This document shows, in pieces, positions 29 through 23,550 of a DNA stretch of 64,000 bases. The notes below the pieces were generated by a model that did no database searches, was not told the origin of the DNA, and saw only the letters and a list, made by a program, of their open reading frames with translations. The DNA is from Deltaproteobacteria bacterium (lineage in GTDB: Bacteria > Desulfobacterota > Desulfomonilia > UBA1062). A program made the translations under genes and the position numbers. Each line of letters opens with the position of its first letter. Within the stretch, counting starts at the first letter, position 1. Where the stretch lies: positions 23,402-87,401 of the forward strand of contig JAKPQL010000065.1 of assembly GCA_029547045.1 (NCBI GenBank), given 5' to 3'.

Positions 29-1420
29 TTAAGCCGGGACCGGCTGAAGGCGATAGTGCGCGATCATCCTCGCATACGCCTTGAGCGCCCTCTCCGGGGT
101 GGGGAAGACCGCCATGCCGCTGTCGTGCAGGGGCTTCAGGAGGTGCGCCTGGTCGATCTGGACGAACCCGGGGTACGCGATGGCAATGATGTGCTTGTCC
201 GTGCCTCGCTGTGCGCGTATGAGGTCCTGGACATAGACCGCGCTCATGTCCTCGGACGCCCCGCCGCCCAGCATGAGAACGGCATCCACACCCGGGTCGG
301 CAAGCACGATGGCCAGGGCCTCCCGGTACAGCCCCACCTCGAAGGCTGCGCCGAGCCCCACGTCCACGGGGTTGGCGGGGGACGTCCCGGTGGGCGGGAT
401 CACCTTCCTCAGGGCAGCCACGGTCTCACCGGATAGCTCTGCCATGCTCAGGCCGCACCGCTCCACCGCATCGGAGGCCGACACCGCGGGCCCGCCCGGG
501 CCCGAGATGATCGCCACCCGGCCCGTGCCCTGCGGGGCCATGCACGAGAAGGCCATGGCCAGGTCGCACATCTCCTCGATGTCGTACACGTCCATGATGT
601 GGAACTGCCGGAACAGGCTCCTCCACAGCCTCTCCTCCCCGGTGAGCGCGCCGGTGTGGGATGCGGCTGCCCTGGCGCCCGAGGCCGTGAGCCCCACCTT
701 CCACATGATCACGGGCTTGTCCCTCGTGGTCTCCCGCAGGGCGGCGATGAGGCCGGCCGGGTCCCGCACGCCCTCGCAGTAGGTGCAGATGAGCCGGGTT
801 TTCTCGTCGCGGCCCATCCACGCGAGGAGGTCGGCCAGCTCGAGGTCCGCGCCGTTGCCCGTGCTGAGGACGTGGCTGAAGGCAAGCCCCTTGGCCGAGC
901 AGAGGTTCACGAACAGGTTCACGAGCGACCCGCTCTGGCTGATGAACCCGAGGCTGCCGGGCGTCTTGGGCATGCCCGGAAACGGTGCGATGCGGGAACC
1001 CGGCGAGAACACGCCCATGCAGTTGGGCCCCAGGATACGGAACCCCCCCTCCCGGGCCATGGCCTTCATGCGTTCCTCGTCGGCGCGGCCTGAATCACCC
1101 CCCAGCTCGGAGAACCCCGAGGTGTAGAGGATCACCGCCTTCACCCGCTTCCGGGCGCACTCGGCGAGCGCCGAAAAGACCGTTTCCTTCGGCGACATGA
1201 CGATGACCAGGTCCACCCCGTTGGGCACCGCATCGAGGTCCTTATAGGTGCTATGGCCGTCGATCTCCTTCGCAGAGGGGTGGATGAGGTGGATGGGTCC
1301 CTCGAAGCCCTGGTCCAGGAGCCCCAGGAGAAAGACCTTGCCCGGTTTGAGCCCCCGGGGTATGCCGTAGAGCGCCACTGACTGCGGGGAGAACAGGCCC
1401 TGGAGATCGTCGCGCACCGT
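29..1420 (-). CDS. Acetate--CoA ligase (ADP-forming) alpha-like / CoA-binding domain protein (succinyl-CoA synthetase-like fold)
   Basis: The 486-aa ORF has the N-terminal motif 'LFSPQSVALYGIP...KPGKV' typical of NDP-forming acyl-CoA synthetase alpha subunits, followed by 'ILGPNCMG' and a C-terminal ligase-CoA domain. I prefer a GTG start at 1420 because AGGAGG sits 6 nt upstream; the ORF finder used TTG at 1489. Confidence 0.7.
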   Translation of the reverse strand, partial: TVRDDLQGLFSPQSVALYGIPRGLKPGKVFLLGLLDQGFEGPIHLIHPSAKEIDGHSTYKDLDAVPNGVDLVIVMSPKETVFSALAECARKRVKAVILYTSGFSELGGDSGRADEERMKAMAREGGFRILGPNCMGVFSPGSRIAPFPGMPKTPGSLGFISQSGSLVNLFVNLCSAKGLAFSHVLSTGNGADLELADLLAWMGRDEKTRLICTYCEGVRDPAGLIAALRETTRDKPVIMWKVGLTASGARAAASHTGALTGEERLWRSLFRQFHIMDVYDIEEMCDLAMAFSCMAPQGTGRVAIISGPGGPAVSASDAVERCGLSMAELSGETVAALRKVIPPTGTSPANPVDVGLGAAFEVGLYREALAIVLADPGVDAVLMLGGGASEDMSAVYVQDLIRAQRGTDKHIIAIAYPGFVQIDQAHLLKPLHDSGMAVFPTPERALKAYARMIAHYRLQPVPA

Positions 1421-1588
1421 GTCACCTCCTGCCACACACATTCGCCGCGCTGACAACGCACTGCACCGCCATAGTACCACCCCTTGCAAAGAACAGAAAG
1501 GGGCATGCCCAGCGCAGGGCTATCCCTTGAAAATCTCCTTTCCTCTCATATCATGGATTGAAAGAACGATTCCACGAGGGACCGGGCC

Positions 1589-2791: not shown

Positions 2792-3134
2792 GCCCGCAAC
2801 AACAGGACCTGCCCCCCTTATCGCCAGTCCTCCAGATCGTACCTTTCCGCCCCCCCCTCACCTCGCCGGACGCGCGCGACATCCACTCCTTGGAGGCGCC
2901 CACGACCCCTGTCGCCCTGCCCCTCCGGCATTCCTGAACGGCCCGCTCCCAGGGCATGGTCACGTACTTCACCGTATGCGAGGCACGGATGAATGAAGGA
3001 ATCATGTATCAAGAACCCGGGGACCCCCTTCTTTCATAGATTGGTCCTTCACCACGTCGAATGTCATTCCGCCAGGGGCCGGCCGGAGCGTCCTCAACGC
3101 GGGACGAGGGCACGGAAGGAGGGCGTACCCTTCG

Positions 3135-3665
3135 TCAACCCTCAGCCGCAGCGAGCACGGCGTTAAGGTCCGCATGGTCCCCGGCAGAGGTGTTGCGGTG
3201 CTGGAACAGGAGTGTCTCTCCCGGGCCCAGGACAAAGACGCCGCCCTGCTGCCACAGGTCGCCGTCTGGCCGGCCCTGGCGGAAACCCTGCATCATGGCC
3301 CTGATGCCGCGGACGAGGGAGGCTGGGCCCAGGGTCTTCCAGATGCCCCGTTCGAGCCGGAAGGCCCGGTACGCGCTGAGGTCCGGGTTCACGTACATGT
3401 CAGCTGAGAACCCGAGCGTATCCATGAACCGCCTCGCGCCCTCGGGGCTGCCGCTGCCGATGGCGATCAGAGCGACCCCTGAAGCCTCCAGCCTTCCTTT
3501 GATAACCATGAGGGCAGCAGCCTGCTGCCTGGCGAACATTCAGCCGAAGTGGCGGAGAAAGACAAGCACGACCCTCCTGCCCTGCCACAGCGACTCCAGC
3601 GCCACATCCTTCCCGTCGATGCCTGTCACGGAAATGCCCGCAATGCGAGTCTTCAGTTCGTCATA
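3135..3665 (-). CDS. AhpC/TSA (peroxiredoxin-like, thioredoxin fold) protein with an in-frame TGA at 3540-3542, read as a putative selenocysteine
   Basis: The upstream part MTELKTRIAGISVTGIDGKDVALESLWQGRRVVLVFLRHFG-[TGA]-MFARQQAAALMVIKGRLEASGVALIAIGSGSPEGARRF... lies in the same frame as the 134-aa ORF at 3135..3539. The TGA falls exactly where Prx-like proteins carry the redox Cys ('FLRHFGC'). Confidence 0.55.
3513..3529 (-). promoter_or_regulatory. SECIS-like hairpin (GGCAGCA-GGC-UGCUGCC) starting 11 nt 3' of the in-frame UGA
   Basis: The mRNA-sense sequence is UGA AUG UUC GCC A GGCAGCAGGCUGCUGCC. It forms a 7-bp perfect stem with a G-rich apical loop. Its spacing from UGA matches bacterial SECIS elements such as the one in fdhF. 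Confidence 0.35.
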
Positions 3666-3694
3666 GGTCATGGACCCCTCCTCCGAGTGTTTCA

Positions 3695-3707
3695 TTCAAT
3701 TTGAATC
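3695..3707. promoter_or_regulatory. Perfect palindrome ATTCAA-T-TTGAAT in the prx-like/marR intergenic region; candidate MarR operator
   Basis: The 13-bp inverted repeat sits about 30 nt upstream of the start of the Prx-like gene. Confidence 0.35.
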
Positions 3708-3817
3708 TCATGTCTTCTGTAGTAATGAGTCCTTTCTGTTTATCAAGGTGCAGGGGATCAGTGAACAAGGATCTTCCTGCCCGGGGGTCCAGTACCGGGA
3801 ATCGGCTCTTGTCTTTT

Positions 3818-3831
3818 GTTTGACATCAAAC
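3818..3831. promoter_or_regulatory. Palindrome GTTTGA-CA-TCAAAC overlapping a TTGACA -35-like hexamer just upstream of marR
   Basis: The 14-bp inverted repeat lies 13 nt upstream of the marR ATG. This is the usual position for a MarR autoregulatory operator. Confidence 0.4.
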
Positions 3832-3843
3832 TATTCTGGCCCC

Positions 3844-4266
3844 ATGAAACCCGAGCTCATCATGCTCCAGATCAGCAGGATCCGGGACAAGGGACACGCC
3901 TTCCTCGCCCGGGAGCTTGCCGCCAGGAACCTCAAGGGCATCGCTCCCACCCATGGCGACATCCTCTGGGCGCTCTTCACCCACGGCGACCTGCCCATGA
4001 AGAGGATCGCCGAGCTCATCAACCGGGACAAATCCACCGTCACCGCGCTGGTGGCCAAACTCATCGACGGCGGGTACGTGGCGCGCACGGCCCATGACTC
4101 GGACCTCCGCAGCACCGTGGTGTCACTCACCGAGAAAGGCCGTGCCATGCAGAAGGACTTCTGGCAGGTGTCCGAACGCCTGCGGGAAAAGGCATACCGG
4201 GGGCTGTCCGATGAGGAAAAGCACACCCTCGTGAACCTCCTCACGAAGATACATGACAATTTCTAA
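3844..4266 (+). CDS. MarR family transcriptional regulator
   Basis: The 140-aa product has a winged-helix MarR signature ('KRIAELINRDKSTVTALVAKLIDGGYVAR...DLRSTVVSLTEKG'). Its start is taken at the internal ATG (MKPELIM...). Confidence 0.8.
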   Translation: MKPELIMLQISRIRDKGHAFLARELAARNLKGIAPTHGDILWALFTHGDLPMKRIAELINRDKSTVTALVAKLIDGGYVARTAHDSDLRSTVVSLTEKGRAMQKDFWQVSERLREKAYRGLSDEEKHTLVNLLTKIHDNF

Positions 4267-4316
4267 ATTTTTTTCTGCATAAAGTTGGACATCAAACCAA
4301 TGGAGGGGTTCTGAAC

Positions 4317-4743
4317 ATGGACAAGAAGACACAGGATATGATCCAGGCACACCTGGGCTACACGGATGAGGAGATGGCGATCTTCATGGAAAACCCCCGC
4401 AACCTCGATGTCATCGCAAAGGCACCGGCGCTCCAAGGCAAGACCATCATCGCCGAGGTGGTGGAGGCGTCCGGGTGCAACTCGGGGCACAGGAAGGGCG
4501 ACCGGTTCGTGTTCGACGGCGCAGGGGAACCTGATCACCGCGCTGAACCCAAAAAGGGTCTGCTGCTTCGCCCTGAGCCCTCTCCTGCCGCTCATCCACG
4601 CGGCTGACGAACTCCTCTATGCGGGCATCGACCCCAACGCCATGCGCTTCAGGCGCACCGGGTGCTTCGACACCGGCATACAGTGCGGCGGATGGGGCCA
4701 CATCGTGATGGAGATAAGGGTGGAAGACCGCGCAAAGACATGA
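4317..4743 (+). pseudogene. Small Cys-rich conserved protein (TIGR04076-like) split by a +1 frameshift in a GGGG run near 4524-4527
   Basis: Frame 0 ends ...HRKGDRFVFDGAG and frame +1 continues NLITALNPKRVCCFALSPLLPLIHAADELLYAGIDPNAMRFRRTGCFDTGIQCGGWGHIVMEIRV. Removing one G from 'gcaggggaac' joins them into a single ~135-aa protein. A sequencing error is possible. Confidence 0.5.
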
Positions 4744-9260: not shown

Positions 9261-11222
9261 TCATACCTCGATGCCATCGCCTCCCATGAGCTCCTCCGCC
9301 GTGATGGCCTCGGCCATGACCGCACCGACGGTCCTCGAGAACCGCGCCGGGTCTTCCACCTTGCCGCCCTCGGCGATGAGGGCCAGGTCGTACAGCAGGC
9401 CCGCATAGTCCGCAAGGAGCGGGTCCTTGCCGTTCTTCTCGAACAGGAAGCGGATGTTGGCGACGGCCGGGTGGTCGATGTTGATTTCCAGGATCCTCTT
9501 TGCGGGCTCGGTCTTCTGGCCGGTGGCCTTCATGATGCGCTCCAGGTAGGGGCTCATGTCGTAGGTCTCGCCTGACAGGCAGGACAGCGAGTCCTTCAGG
9601 TGCGTGGAGGCCTTCACGTCCTTCACGTGGTCCTTGAGCTCCTCTTTGAGGAAGGCGAAGAAGCCGTCGAACTCGTGCCTCTTCTTCTCGTCAACCGTGG
9701 TGATGCCGAGGTCGCCCTTTTCCGCGCTCACGAACTTCTTGGTGTCGAAGACCCGCAGGACCTGCACGATGAACTCGTCGATGGGGTCGGTCATGAGCAC
9801 CACCTCGAGGCCCTTCTCCTTGAGCCGCTCCAGGTGGGGACTGTTCAGGAGCGTGGCCGCGTTCTCTCCCGTGATGTAGTAGATGGCGTCCTGGCCCTCC
9901 TGCATGCGGCTCACGTAATCGGCCAACGACACGAGTTTCCCTTCCGAGGCTGTGGTCTGGTACCGAAGGAGTTTGGCGATCCGGTCCCTGTTCTCGTGAT
10001 CCGTGGGGATGCCGATCTTGAGGATGGGGCCGAACTCGGCGAAGAACTTCGCGTACTTCTCGGTGTCCATGCCCTCCAGGAGGTCGAAGAGCCTTTTCAC
10101 GAGGTTCTTGCGGATGTTCCGCACCAGGCCGTCCTGCTGGAGGATCTCGCGGCTGATGTTGAGGTTCAGGTCCGGGGCGTCCACCACGCCCTGCACGAAG
10201 CTGAAGTACTCGGGCAGGAGCTCCCTGCAGTCGTCCATGATGAACACGCGCTTGCAGTAGAGGTGGATGCCGTGCCTGCGCTCGCGCATGGTGAAGTCGA
10301 GGGGCAGCCTCGAGGGTATGTACAGCAGCGCGTTGTACTCGGTGGTGCCCTCGAACCTGATATGCACGTGCTCCAGTGGTTCGGACCAGTCGTGGCTGAT
10401 GTGCTTGTAGAACTCCGAGTACTCCTCGTCCGTGACCTCCGACTTGTTCCTCGTCCAGATGGCCTTCATGGAGTTGAGGGTCTCTTCCCGCTTCACCTTT
10501 CTGGTCGTTTCACCGATGGGCTTGCCGTCGGCGTCCTTGAGGATCTCTGCCTCGGCCAGGGGTTCCTGGCGCTCCACGTCCATGACGATGGGGTAGCTCA
10601 CGAAGTCCGAGTGGCGTTTCACCACGCCCCGGATTGTCCACTCGTCCGTGTAGTCGGGTTCGCCCTCGGAGGGCTCCTTGAGGTGGAGGGTCACGGAGGT
10701 TCCCCTGCCCTTCTTCTTGGTCTCCTCGATGGTGTAGGTCCCGTCGCCCGTGGACTCCCACTTCGTCGCTGTCCTGGCGCCCGGCGCCTTCGTGACGAGG
10801 GTGACCTTGTCCGCCACGATGAAGGAGCTGTAGAACCCCACGCCGAACTGGCCGATGAGCTCGGGTGCGATGGTGTCCTTCTTCATGGCCTCCACCGCCT
10901 CCAGAAAGGCCTTCGTGCCGCTCTGGGCGATGGTGCCGATGTTCTCCACCACCTCCTCGTGTGTCATGCCGATGCCGTTGTCCTCGATGGTGATGGTCCG
11001 GTTCTTCCGGTCGGGGATGATCCTGATCTTGAACTCTCCGTCACCGGCCAGGATGTCGGGGTCGGTCTGGGACTTGAACCTGATCTTGTCAATGGCGTCA
11101 GAGGCGTTCGAGATGAGCTCCCGCAGGAAGATCTCCGGGTGCGAGTACAGGGAGTTGATGATGAGTTTGAGGACCTTCTGGACCTCGGCCTTGAACTGGT
11201 GTGTCTCCTTCTTGTGCTCCAT
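9261..11222 (-). CDS. htpG: Molecular chaperone HtpG (Hsp90)
   Basis: The 653-aa product contains '[14 protein letters not shown]', '[10 protein letters not shown]' and a full-length Hsp90 architecture. Confidence 0.95.
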
Positions 11223-14750: not shown

Positions 14751-16048
14751 CTAGAAAGGCCTCCCCGTGGCCATGTCTGCTTCAGCAGAAGCCTGGTGGG
14801 CCATGTCGATGGAACGCCCCAGGGTGTTCATGACCTGGGACGGGTTGTGGAAGCCCATGCCGTTCTCTGCGGCCACCACGTCCCAGAACCACTGGGCCCT
14901 GCGGATCAGTTCCCTGGCCTTCTCGAGGCGGGTCTTGTCCGCCGTCTGGATCGCAGCCGCCCTGGAGATGGTCTCGTGGGCCCTGGCCACGGTCTGACCG
15001 GCGATATGCTGGAGCTGCCAGCAGTTGTCCTGCACGGTCTTGACACGGTCCAGCAGCCACTTCTCGTCCTGGGTGTGGCAGGTCATGCAGGATGCCTGCA
15101 CATGCTTCAGCGGGCTCGTCACCCAGTGGGAGGAGTACTTCTGGCCCTTGTCCCGCATGAAGGGCATGTGGCAGTCGGCACATGCCACGCCGGATCTCGC
15201 GTGCACACCACCCGTGAAGGTCTCGAAGTCCGGGTGCTGGGCCTTGAGCATCCTGGCCCCGGAGTCGGGGTGGACCCAGTCCTGCTCGAAGCCGGCGGGC
15301 TTCTGTGCATAGTAGGAGTACATCTCTTCCGGCAGGTATCCCTTGTCCCAGGGAAACACCACTTTCTTGGAGGCGGGTTCGAAGTAGTACTCGCTGTGGC
15401 ACTGGCCGCAGACATAGCTGCGCATGTCCTGCCGTGAGGCCTTGCTCACGTCTATGCCCAGGCGCTCCATGGCCTCGATGAATGCCGGGTTCACCACGGT
15501 GAGCTTCATGGTCACCGGGTCGTGGCAGTTGGCGCAGGTGACGGGGTGCTTCACGCCAAGGAGGATGTCGGCCAGGGGCAGTTTCGCATATTCCCACCCC
15601 TTGTCCCTGTAGATGTCGGATCGGCTGTCTTGCAGGTCATGCACGCGCCGACGCTGGCTGGCGTGACCCTCCTGGTCTCCTTGAGGTCCTCCAGGGCATA
15701 GGGATGACCCCGGTCTTCGGCGTAATCCTTGCTGAAGGGCATGCCCTTGAAGTTCATGAGGATCTCCGGTTCCTTCACGGACTTCTGCACCTTCTCGCTG
15801 CCGCCGAAGCCCGTGGGTGACAGGGCCATGCCGCGGTTCTTCAGGTAGCTTGCGTATTGCAGCGTGTAGTGCTGACCCCACACGGCCGGGTCATGCTCAC
15901 CTGCCGGGATCCTTGCCAGCTTGATGGTGGTCTCGGGTCGAAGGAAGAAGGCCTGCGCCATGATGGCGGCAAAGAGAAAGGCAGCGAGCACTGCGACGGC
16001 CAGGACGATCTTTGTGTTCCTATTCAACGCTGATCCCTCCTTGTACAA
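14751..16048 (-). pseudogene. nrfA: Cytochrome c nitrite reductase NrfA (pentahaem), interrupted by a -1 frameshift near 15617
   Basis: The N-terminal frame (16048..15551) has a signal peptide and haem 1 'CMTCK'. The C-terminal frame (15881..14751) has CANCH, CGQCH, CADCH and CMTCH. One G missing in 'gtcggatc' separates ...CKTAD from DIYRDKGWEY; the native sequence was likely ...ADPDIYRDKGW. A sequencing error is possible. Confidence 0.8.
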
Positions 16049-16493
16049 GGCCGGTGCCGTGGATGAGGGCCCGGTGACAGTTCAGGCACGCGGTTCCCGG
16101 TGAAGCCATGAACGTGTTCTGCACGGTGGAGAAGTGGCACCGCAGGCAGTTTCCCTCCACGATGCCGCGCCCCTCATCGGAGAGCCGCAGGGAGGCGGGA
16201 TAGGATCTCAGGGTCTCGTGGTACAGGTCGTTGAGGCCGGCCCTTGTCTTGTAAGCGGCCTGCGCCACGAGATTGGAATCGGGCAGGTGGCATTCGATGC
16301 ACGCATACTGCTTGTGAAGGGACCGGCCCCATGTGTCTCCCACGTCCTTCATGCTGTGGCAGGCCGTGCAGAAGGCGGGATTGCCCGATGCGTGGTAGCC
16401 CGAGACCACCGCAGCACAGAAGACGACACCCACGACTACCCCTGCAGCGAGAATCCTGAGGGCCGGCGCTCGAAGTATATCACGATAGCCCAC
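16020..16493 (-). CDS. nrfH: NrfH, a tetrahaem NapC/NirT-family membrane quinol dehydrogenase
   Basis: The product has an N-terminal TM helix and four CxxCH motifs (CTACH, CIECH, CLRCH, CLNCH). Its 3' end overlaps the nrfA start by 29 nt. GGAGG lies 10 nt upstream of the GTG start. Confidence 0.85.
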   Translation of the reverse strand: MGYRDILRAPALRILAAGVVVGVVFCAAVVSGYHASGNPAFCTACHSMKDVGDTWGRSLHKQYACIECHLPDSNLVAQAAYKTRAGLNDLYHETLRSYPASLRLSDEGRGIVEGNCLRCHFSTVQNTFMASPGTACLNCHRALIHGTGLVQGGISVE

Positions 16494-22869: not shown

Positions 22870-23550
22870 TCAGGAAAACGCGCTCACGTACTTGTATATG
22901 GTCCAGAAGTGCGCGAGCGTGCCCAGCATGACGAAGATGTGGAAGATCTCGTGGAAGCCGAACACCTCGGGGAAGGGGTCGGGCCTCTTGACGGCGTAGA
23001 TGAGGCCGCCAGCGGTGTAGAGGAGGCCCCCGGTCACGAGCCAGAAGAGCCCGCCCGGCTGCAGGGTCCTCACCAGGGGCACGATGCCCACGATGACGAT
23101 CCAGCCCATGCACACGTACATGGCCGCCGAGAGCCAGCGGGGGGCGTGGATCCAGAAGGCCTTGAACACGATGCCCATGAGTGCCACGGCCCACACCGTG
23201 CCGAAGATGCTCCACCCCCAGGCGCCCCGGAGCGGCACCAGGCAGAACGGGGTGTAGGTGGCGGCGATGAGCACGAAGATCATCATGTGGTCGAGCTTGC
23301 GCAGCCTCGACCTGCCGGTGCTCCCCAGGGGAAGCCAGTGGTACAGCGTGCTCGCCGTGTAGAGCAGGATCATGCCCGCGCCGAAGACGCAGTAGGTGGT
23401 GAGGTGCCAGGGCCTCAGCGGGTTCGATGCCTTGACGATGAGAGCCGCCAGACCGGCCACTGCCAGCAGCGCGCCGATGAAGTGGGTGAGCCCGCTCACC
23501 GGGTCGCGCAGACTCCTGGCGATCCGGGAGAAGAGGTTGTGTCCATGCAT
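22870..23550 (-). CDS. Hemolysin III / PAQR family membrane protein
   Basis: The product is a 7-TM HlyIII-like protein ('GNLFSRIARSLRDPVSGLTHFIGALLAV...'). GAGGA lies 8 nt upstream of the ATG at 23550. Confidence 0.8.
   Translation of the reverse strand: MHGHNLFSRIARSLRDPVSGLTHFIGALLAVAGLAALIVKASNPLRPWHLTTYCVFGAGMILLYTASTLYHWLPLGSTGRSRLRKLDHMMIFVLIAATYTPFCLVPLRGAWGWSIFGTVWAVALMGIVFKAFWIHAPRWLSAAMYVCMGWIVIVGIVPLVRTLQPGGLFWLVTGGLLYTAGGLIYAVKRPDPFPEVFGFHEIFHIFVMLGTLAHFWTIYKYVSAFS

Follow-up and report, generated by a model that had tools for sequence, protein, structure and literature searches.

We analyzed a 64-kb stretch of DNA from a Deltaproteobacteria bacterium of the Desulfobacterota (64,000 nucleotides [nt], positions 23,402 to 87,401 of contig JAKPQL010000065.1, assembly GCA_029547045.1; hereafter, the window), in which a gene on the minus strand carries a single in-frame TGA. 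Positions 3135 to 3671 very probably form one gene, encoding a 178-residue selenoprotein of the PRXL2 / AhpC-TSA_2 (cd02970) thioredoxin-fold family, with selenocysteine (Sec, or U) at codon 44; we put the probability of this reading at about 0.92. The gene is an ordinary member of an already catalogued selenoprotein family, the cd02970 "peroxiredoxin-like/AhpC-TSA family protein," which we take to be the same as Pfam PF13911 in CDD. The current understanding of selenoproteins is unchanged by it. Of modest novelty are how broad the Cys-free clade with a UxxA motif proves to be and the quantified constraint at the RNA level. The features that make up the gene are listed below.

3135 to 3671, minus strand: full coding sequence (CDS) of the putative selenoprotein, 178 codons plus stop, Sec at codon 44; based on translation and on Pfam, NCBIfam and PDB matches
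3540 to 3542, minus strand: UGA presumably read as selenocysteine (U44); aligned to the first Cys of FLRHFG-C-xx-C, with TGA in 54 related loci
3513 to 3529, minus strand: hairpin GGCAGCA-GGC-UGCUGCC of the selenocysteine insertion sequence (SECIS) type, within the CDS (codons R-Q-Q-A-A-A); based on pairing and synonymous constraint
3677 to 3684, minus strand: Shine-Dalgarno (SD) sequence GGAGGAGG, 5 nt before the ATG at 3671; direct reading

Reading frame and start site

Direct reading and translation showed that the minus-strand frame is open from an ATG at 3671-3669 to a TGA at 3137-3135, with a single internal TGA at 3542-3540. There are 43 codons before this TGA and 134 after it, as described in a first-pass annotation made from the sequence of the window. 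The same annotation gave the N terminus as MTELKTRI and the end of the gene as 3665. This was wrong, two residues having been dropped: the N terminus is MTYDELKTRI, and the end is at 3671. At its N-terminal end the protein has the sequence MTYDELKTRIAGISVTGIDGKDVALESLWQGRRVVLVFLRHFG-U-MFARQQAAAL.... Starting instead at a second in-frame ATG, at 3695, would lengthen it to 186 residues; this ATG has no SD sequence. The orthologues start with M-T/R-Y-D/N-[DE]-L-K and have AGGA or GGAG upstream. Neither a sigma-70-like promoter nor a terminator was predicted for the gene in this region.

The list of open reading frames (ORFs) of the window gives two separate pieces, one of 51 or 43 amino acids and one of 134 amino acids, and metagenome gene callers do likewise. 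The 134-amino-acid ORF is an artefact: an ATG happens to come directly after the UGA, and because of this coincidence the gene was overlooked by the callers. The earlier claim that the gene is hidden by ORF calling held for nearly all public calls, since on the source contig, as on every contig from ENA, JGI and Logan, the calls come in two parts, of 43 or 51 and of 134 amino acids. It did not hold for NCBI assembly GCA_035375005.1, where a 186-residue call (DAOSPP010000248.1, 2615-3175) spans the TGA, on DNA identical to that of the window and with a start equivalent to the ATG at 3695. Some pipeline has therefore already read through this TGA.

The two-piece calls would be correct if the TGA were a real stop in a split or decaying gene, giving a 43-residue peptide and a 134-residue C-terminal fragment made by reinitiation at the adjacent ATG. 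The position of that ATG, the fact that nearly all public gene calls are these two fragments, and the Sec machinery not being seen in the window all fit such a scheme. However, the 134-residue fragment would be without the active-site strand and the catalytic residue, and the internal ATG is not preceded by an SD sequence. The comparison with relatives described next also bears on this question.

The UGA lies at the position of the nucleophilic cysteine

The first-pass annotation placed the UGA at the position of the catalytic Cys, and the alignments bore this out. U44 was opposite the first Cys of FLRHFG-C-xx-C-RE in 36 Cys-type loci and proteins, so that the full-length Cys homologues align the first Cys of their CxxC to the U. 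In a PDB alignment, U44 was opposite Cys44, and A47 opposite Cys47, of human prostamide/prostaglandin F (PGF) synthase (PGFS).

Among stop-bearing related loci from genomes and metagenomes, the codon was TGA in 54 of 54, with neither TAA nor TAG in any of them; both TAA and TAG are common as genuine stops in the long ORFs of the window. A stop conserved in close relatives had been proposed as a sign against Sec. Such a stop is indeed present, but because only TGA, and neither TAA nor TAG, occurs there, and the hairpin always accompanies it, the pattern marks Sec rather than termination. The extension upstream of the TGA is open and conserved in every related Sec locus and has its own ATG and ribosome-binding site (RBS). 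Over the 40 upstream codons, pairwise differences at codon positions 1, 2 and 3 were 0.38, 0.24 and 0.56, respectively, which is a protein-coding pattern. The codon that follows the UGA is CTT, ATC, CTG, ACG or another in many orthologues, so a restart at this codon is not conserved; CTT, ATC and ACG are no start codons. With neither TAA nor TAG as the stop in any of 54 loci, 43 upstream codons that stay open and evolve as coding sequence, and a nucleotide-level constraint on the hairpin (see below), termination at the TGA is extremely unlikely.

The TGA could also be a sequencing or assembly error in a Cys codon (TGC or TGT). Single-base errors do occur in metagenome-assembled genomes (MAGs), and a probable 1-nt indel lies 1 kb away, at 4524-4527. 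This explanation is refuted by the presence of the identical TGA in six independent assemblies of the window organism and, in unrelated samples, in about 50 further loci, and we regard its probability as negligible.

The hairpin downstream of the UGA

A 7-bp hairpin about 11 nt 3' of the UGA had been predicted, and direct reading confirmed it. The arms GGCAGCA (3529-3523) and UGCUGCC (3519-3513) enclose the loop GGC (3522-3520). The gap between the UGA and the stem is 10 nt, the stem beginning at the 11th nt, and the distance from the UGA to the loop is 17 nt. Comparable hairpins, defined by a 7-bp Watson-Crick stem at 8 to 13 nt, a loop of 3 to 5 nt and a G in the first two loop positions, followed only 4 of the 2064 TGA triplets on the two strands of the window, and one of these 4 was the same palindrome on the opposite strand. 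When 71 nt around the hairpin were folded, the result was unexceptional (z = -0.82); the evidence for the hairpin is its comparison with relatives and not its energy. A lower-stem extension (GCCA/UGGU) found in the single-sequence fold was dropped, as it was not conserved in the alignment.

In the bSECIS model (quoted in PMC13188914), the loop has 3 to 9 nt, the stem has 4 to 16 bp, a G is at loop position 1 or 2, the UGA-to-loop distance is 16 to 37 nt, and the minimum free energy is -7.5 kcal/mol or lower. The window hairpin lies within all these constraints: its loop is GGC (3 nt), its stem has 7 bp, the UGA-to-loop distance is 17 nt, and the energy is -11.6 kcal/mol or lower. It was also compared with the SECIS of Escherichia coli fdhF, which is UGA + 11 nt + GGUUGCA-GGUC-UGCACC (confirmed in 5419 E. 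coli genomes). The two share a 17-nt minimal hairpin, a GCAGG(U)C core and a loop opening with G-G, and some orthologues of the window gene have exactly GCAGGUC. They differ in that the hairpin starts at the 12th nt after the UGA in fdhF and at the 11th in the window, that the window hairpin has neither the bulged U nor the extended lower helix, and that its loop is GGC or AGGYN instead of GGUC.

Three clades of Sec-type relatives were distinguished (see below), the window gene belonging to clade 1. In 19 distinct clade-1 orthologues, the seven stem pairs were 94% formed; 4 pairs were invariant, and G-U was found in 2 sequences. Two pairs had changed on both sides, the outer G-C to A-U in locus L006 and the second G-C to U-A in L027 (n = 2). 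Covariation in the hairpin is, on these alignments, modest, and the synonymous constraint is the stronger evidence. Synonymous diversity, measured as the fraction of sequence pairs that share an amino acid but differ in its codon, was 0.10 for codons 4 to 9 past the UGA, compared with 0.48 for codons 10 to 100 and 0.52 for the 40 upstream codons. Codon usage in the hairpin is frozen in clade 1, with CAG as the sole codon for Gln and GCU as that for the middle Ala. Every Sec clade has an invariant hairpin of its own. That of clade 3 (CGGGCC-GGUCA-GGUCCG) is different and equally invariant, with flanks that vary freely, and the Cys-type homologues have no conserved hairpin. Over the same 36 nt, the median fold z was -1.38 for the Sec forms and -0.13 for the Cys forms (Mann-Whitney P = 1.4e-7; the sequences are related, and the P value is indicative only). 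These comparisons support the assignment of the hairpin as a bacterial SECIS element, and the gene offers a clean example of how such an element within a CDS freezes both the synonymous sites and the local peptide.

Read-through of the UGA without selenium, by near-cognate decoding as Trp or Cys or by a suppressor tRNA, would leave the hairpin merely to slow the ribosome or release factor 2. Downstream structures are known to stimulate read-through in general, and Sec genes were not seen in the window, to which alone this point applies. Against this, the UGA stands at the nucleophile of a redox motif, where Trp would not function and where an ordinary Cys codon, such as the Cys homologues use, would be the simpler solution. 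The size of the hairpin, its GG/GGU loop and the UGA-to-loop spacing match those of SelB-binding SECIS elements, including that of E. coli fdhF. Moreover, the clade-1 genome loci all come from Desulfobacterota, except for one bin, and this is the lineage richest in selenoproteins (PMC1794560, PMC13326102). Selenium-independent read-through is, on balance, very improbable.

Family and fold

With Cys substituted for U, the query matched Pfam AhpC-TSA_2 (6.7e-23, 81.7 bits against a cut-off of 27) and, weakly, AhpC-TSA (5.8e-8, 33 bits). The score against NCBIfam NF040769 (SelL-related redox protein) was 121.4 bits for the window protein, with a cut-off of 120, and 109.7 and 113.6 bits, below the cut-off, for clade orthologues. 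By these scores, clade 1 is placed at the edge of the NF040769 family. The closest solved structure was human prostamide/PGF synthase PRXL2B (PDB 9us9; E = 1.8e-15, residues 16-172), of which the companion PGFS entry is a C44S/C47S mutant.

The structure modelled, with AlphaFold, was that of P0106, a full-length Cys homologue with 38% identity to the window protein. In this model (predicted local distance difference test score, pLDDT, 92.9), C42 of the CxxC motif caps helix 43-54 at its N terminus, immediately following strand 31-36. The model superposed best on PGFS, with a template modeling (TM) score of 0.81 to 0.86, and Bcp/PrxQ, ResA and Prx5 came behind. The residues preceding Sec in the window protein are R-H-F-G, with no Thr or Ser at -3, so the T/S-x-x-C plus Arg triad context of peroxiredoxins is missing. 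Because PGFS is the best structural match and R-H-F-G stands before Sec, the window protein is classed here as a PRXL2-type thioredoxin-fold protein and not as a classical peroxiredoxin. The initial assignment to a Prx-like/AhpC-TSA protein is accordingly kept for the thioredoxin fold and the Prx-like/PRXL2 group, but it does not extend to true peroxiredoxins.

The active-site motif of the window protein is U-M-F-A (UxxA), neither a CxxC nor a UxxC redox pair. No Cys is present in the whole sequence, the fourth motif position is Ala in 26 of 26 clade-1 loci, and the clade-1 orthologues are without any conserved Cys.

Relatives and their annotation

About 105 close homologues, with 53 to 100% identity, were found in a collection of 5.8 billion proteins. 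All of them cover the post-UGA part only, at 105 to 147 residues, except that one protein of 170 residues has a C-terminal extension. Where public names are given, they are "AhpC/TSA family protein" or "peroxiredoxin-like family protein." Homologues aligning only to the 134-residue part had been named as a finding that would speak against a selenoprotein. This is what the databases contain, but at the DNA level it is the same ORF-calling artefact, because the DNA of each locus has an open, conserved extension with a start and an RBS. In nine Desulfobacterota-type genome loci, the DNA reads FLRHFG-TGA-[ML]FA[RKQ]QQ, with an open and conserved N-terminal extension, an ATG and an RBS. The full-length matches, of 173 to 190 amino acids and 36 to 39% identity, all have FLRHFG-C-xx-C-RE. 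A metagenome scan added 80 further loci, and the combined set fell into three Sec clades and the Cys forms, as follows.

Clade 1: U-[MLI]-F-A-RQQ[AV]AAL, 26 loci; the clade of the window gene; apart from one bin labelled Bacteriovoracaceae, its genome loci are all Desulfobacterota
Clade 2: U-[IL]-F-C-REQVAQ, 4 loci; in three of them a dehydrogenase-like domain is fused on
Clade 3: U-x-T-C-RERAGQVR, 24 loci; one from an Actinobacteria MAG
Cys forms: CxxC, with a few CxxA, CxxL or CxxS, 36 loci; no conserved hairpin

The three fused clade-2 Sec homologues (L032, 18-1676; L035, 207-1823; L042, 1495-3042) have a C-terminal domain of about 300 residues that is short-chain-dehydrogenase-like (TGANSGIG), and the fusion suggests a built-in reductase partner. 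On the L042 metagenome contig, a Cys form (C-MF-C) at 291 has a Sec paralogue (U-LF-C) at 1618, at a distance of about 1.3 kb.

The about 105 homologues are stored only as fragments without the active site, under the NCBI name "AhpC/TSA family protein." Orthologues score just below the NCBIfam cut-off, and this is the probable reason for their truncated state in public entries. With the homologues stored as fragments, counts of the Desulfobacterota selenoproteome overlook this clade in every case where the score against the curated model is slightly under the cut-off.

Comparison with known selenoproteins and PRXL2 proteins

The catalogued cd02970 family belongs to the same superfamily: its two names, "AhpC/TSA family protein" and "peroxiredoxin-like family protein," are those that the truncated homologues bear. 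It also shares with the window protein a Sec in the first position of the xx motif, a small residue in place of the second Cys, and a deltaproteobacterial origin. Its catalogued representative, MDX2448127.1, is UxxS, and the window protein is UxxA; the two were compared by their listed motifs. Thioredoxin-fold and Prx-like selenoproteins with UxxC, UxxS or UxxU have been in catalogues since 2004-2008 (PMC2398784, PMC1794560). In the paper library that was searched, neither "SelL-related" nor PF13911 turned up together with "selenoprotein."

Human PRXL2B (9us9/9usa) has in common with the window protein the fold family, the alignment of its catalytic Cys44 with U44, and the superposition with the homologue model given above. 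The window protein differs from it in being bacterial, about 25% identical, with Ala in place of the resolving Cys47 and no Cys anywhere. PGFS resolves its intermediate internally via Cys47, which the window protein cannot do. A prostaglandin substrate is implausible for the window protein, which belongs to a sulfate-reducer lineage. Eukaryotic SelU members of the PRXL2 group also carry Sec. NF040769 and the selenoprotein L of fish and invertebrates share the fold and the active-site position, and the window protein scores above the NF040769 cut-off over its full length. Selenoprotein L, however, has a UxxU diselenide motif, while the window protein has one Sec and no partner.

Decoding and proposed mechanism

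In the mechanism that we consider most likely, the UGA at codon 44 would be decoded as selenocysteine during translation. The hairpin within the CDS, 17 nt past the UGA, would recruit SelB and Sec-tRNA(Sec) while the UGA is in the A site. Sec44 replaces the nucleophilic first Cys of CxxC and, from the alignment and the model of the Cys homologue, would cap the first active-site helix at its N terminus. The selenolate would then most likely attack an oxidised substrate, at either the O-O bond of a peroxide or endoperoxide or a disulfide. Because the motif is UxxA and the protein has no Cys, an external reductant must recycle the Sec; the selenenic acid or selenenylsulfide may be resolved by thioredoxin, glutaredoxin or a low-molecular-weight thiol. 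By analogy of mechanism, glutathione peroxidase and 1-Cys Prx (Prdx6) likewise have a single redox chalcogen, no intramolecular resolving Cys and an external thiol. They belong to other families, however, and the Prx triad context is absent from the window protein.

We tentatively propose, at somewhat less than even odds for the two parts taken together, that the Cys-free UxxA clade is a distinct "one-selenium" PRXL2-fold enzyme and that its invariant R-Q-Q-A/V-A-A-L is dictated by the SECIS RNA and not by protein function. Selenium would then be the sole redox atom, and the enzyme may depend on a partner thiol or on a substrate unlike that of its UxxC and CxxC relatives. A Cys-free, single-Sec thioredoxin-fold protein would be a simple system for studying the role of Sec without a resolving partner.

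Several observations weigh against the selenoprotein assignment or limit it. As the first-pass annotation had stated, no selA, selB or selD lies inside the window, at least among the 20 large ORFs scanned, in which BipA/TypA was the sole EF-Tu-like GTPase. The 64 kb contain no tRNA-Sec, nor any other tRNA. Sec decoding in the window organism is therefore something we infer, and the catalytic mechanism and substrate are drawn from family resemblance. The fold evidence comes from the model of P0106, a 38%-identical Cys homologue, and not from the window protein itself. Covariation in the hairpin amounts to two independent double changes, since most of the stem is invariant, and slid-register controls scored alike on the covariation measure alone. 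No Rfam SECIS family was matched over 2800-4400 at a permissive threshold, at which chance matches alone appeared; this is expected for a bacterial SECIS.

Genomic neighborhood

A regulator gene is divergent from the selenoprotein gene, and two palindromes lie between them. These features are as follows.

3844 to 4266, plus strand: divergent MarR-family regulator, 140 amino acids, no Cys; Pfam MarR 1e-11
3818 to 3831, no strand: palindromic box GTTTGA-TG-TCAAAC, a candidate MarR operator, 13 nt upstream of the marR start
3694 to 3706, no strand: perfect palindrome of 13 nt, ATTCAA-A-TTGAAT, within the selenoprotein gene's 5' leader or promoter; direct reading

The best NCBIfam matches of the MarR protein were far below their cut-offs. 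The divergent pairing noted in the first pass is present in the window, but it is not conserved: it was found only in contigs of the window organism and is absent at the orthologous loci. There the neighbors vary, with HtpG, a TetR-like regulator and CoA ligases in one lineage and a DUF362-ferredoxin in another, and this variation leaves the gene context uninformative about the mechanism. Because it has no Cys, the MarR protein is not an OhrR-type peroxide sensor, and an OhrR/MarR peroxide-stress pair was rejected on this ground and on that of the pairing not being conserved. A regulatory link from MarR to the selenoprotein is possible but unsupported.

Both perfect palindromes claimed between the two genes were found by reading and by pattern search. 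An inverted-repeat search of the region reported neither; the arms of the palindromes are just 6 to 7 nt. A second copy of GTTTGA-TG-TCAAAC, with one mismatch, is located at 4284-4297, before the next gene. With 3 matches where chance would give 0.17, the box is probably the operator of the divergent MarR.

The MarR-box-like site at 4284-4297 is just upstream of the gene that follows marR (4317-4743, plus strand), which is split into two frames. The first reads MDKK...FVFDGAG in the frame of 4317, and the second reads NLITALNPKRVCCF...EDRAKT and ends at 4743. The two are separated by one surplus G in the G run at 4524-4527 (gcaGGGGaac), reflecting either an indel of the assembly or a genuine frameshift. 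The repaired 141-amino-acid protein had a weak match to TIGR04076 (22.8 bits against a cut-off of 33).

A scan of the window for other TGA-joined split ORFs, based on the G+C content at third codon positions (GC3), returned antisense frames of real genes only and missed the selenoprotein gene too. Elsewhere in the window, an ORF for a cytochrome c552 (NrfA-like; 14751-15881, minus strand, 376 amino acids) matches profile positions 104-380 of 438 only, and its ends may be mis-called; a 157-amino-acid ORF (16020-16493) adjoins it. HtpG (9261-11222, minus strand) and a CoA-binding/succinyl-CoA-ligase-like gene (29-1489, minus strand) are near the selenoprotein gene, as they are in the Desulfomonilia-like locus L097 (1-3476). 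HtpG directly adjoins the selenoprotein gene on its upstream side in L097; in the window the two are separated by about 5.6 kb, which comprise marR, the TIGR04076-like gene, SnoaL, a sigma factor, DUF3795, a ferredoxin and DUF362.

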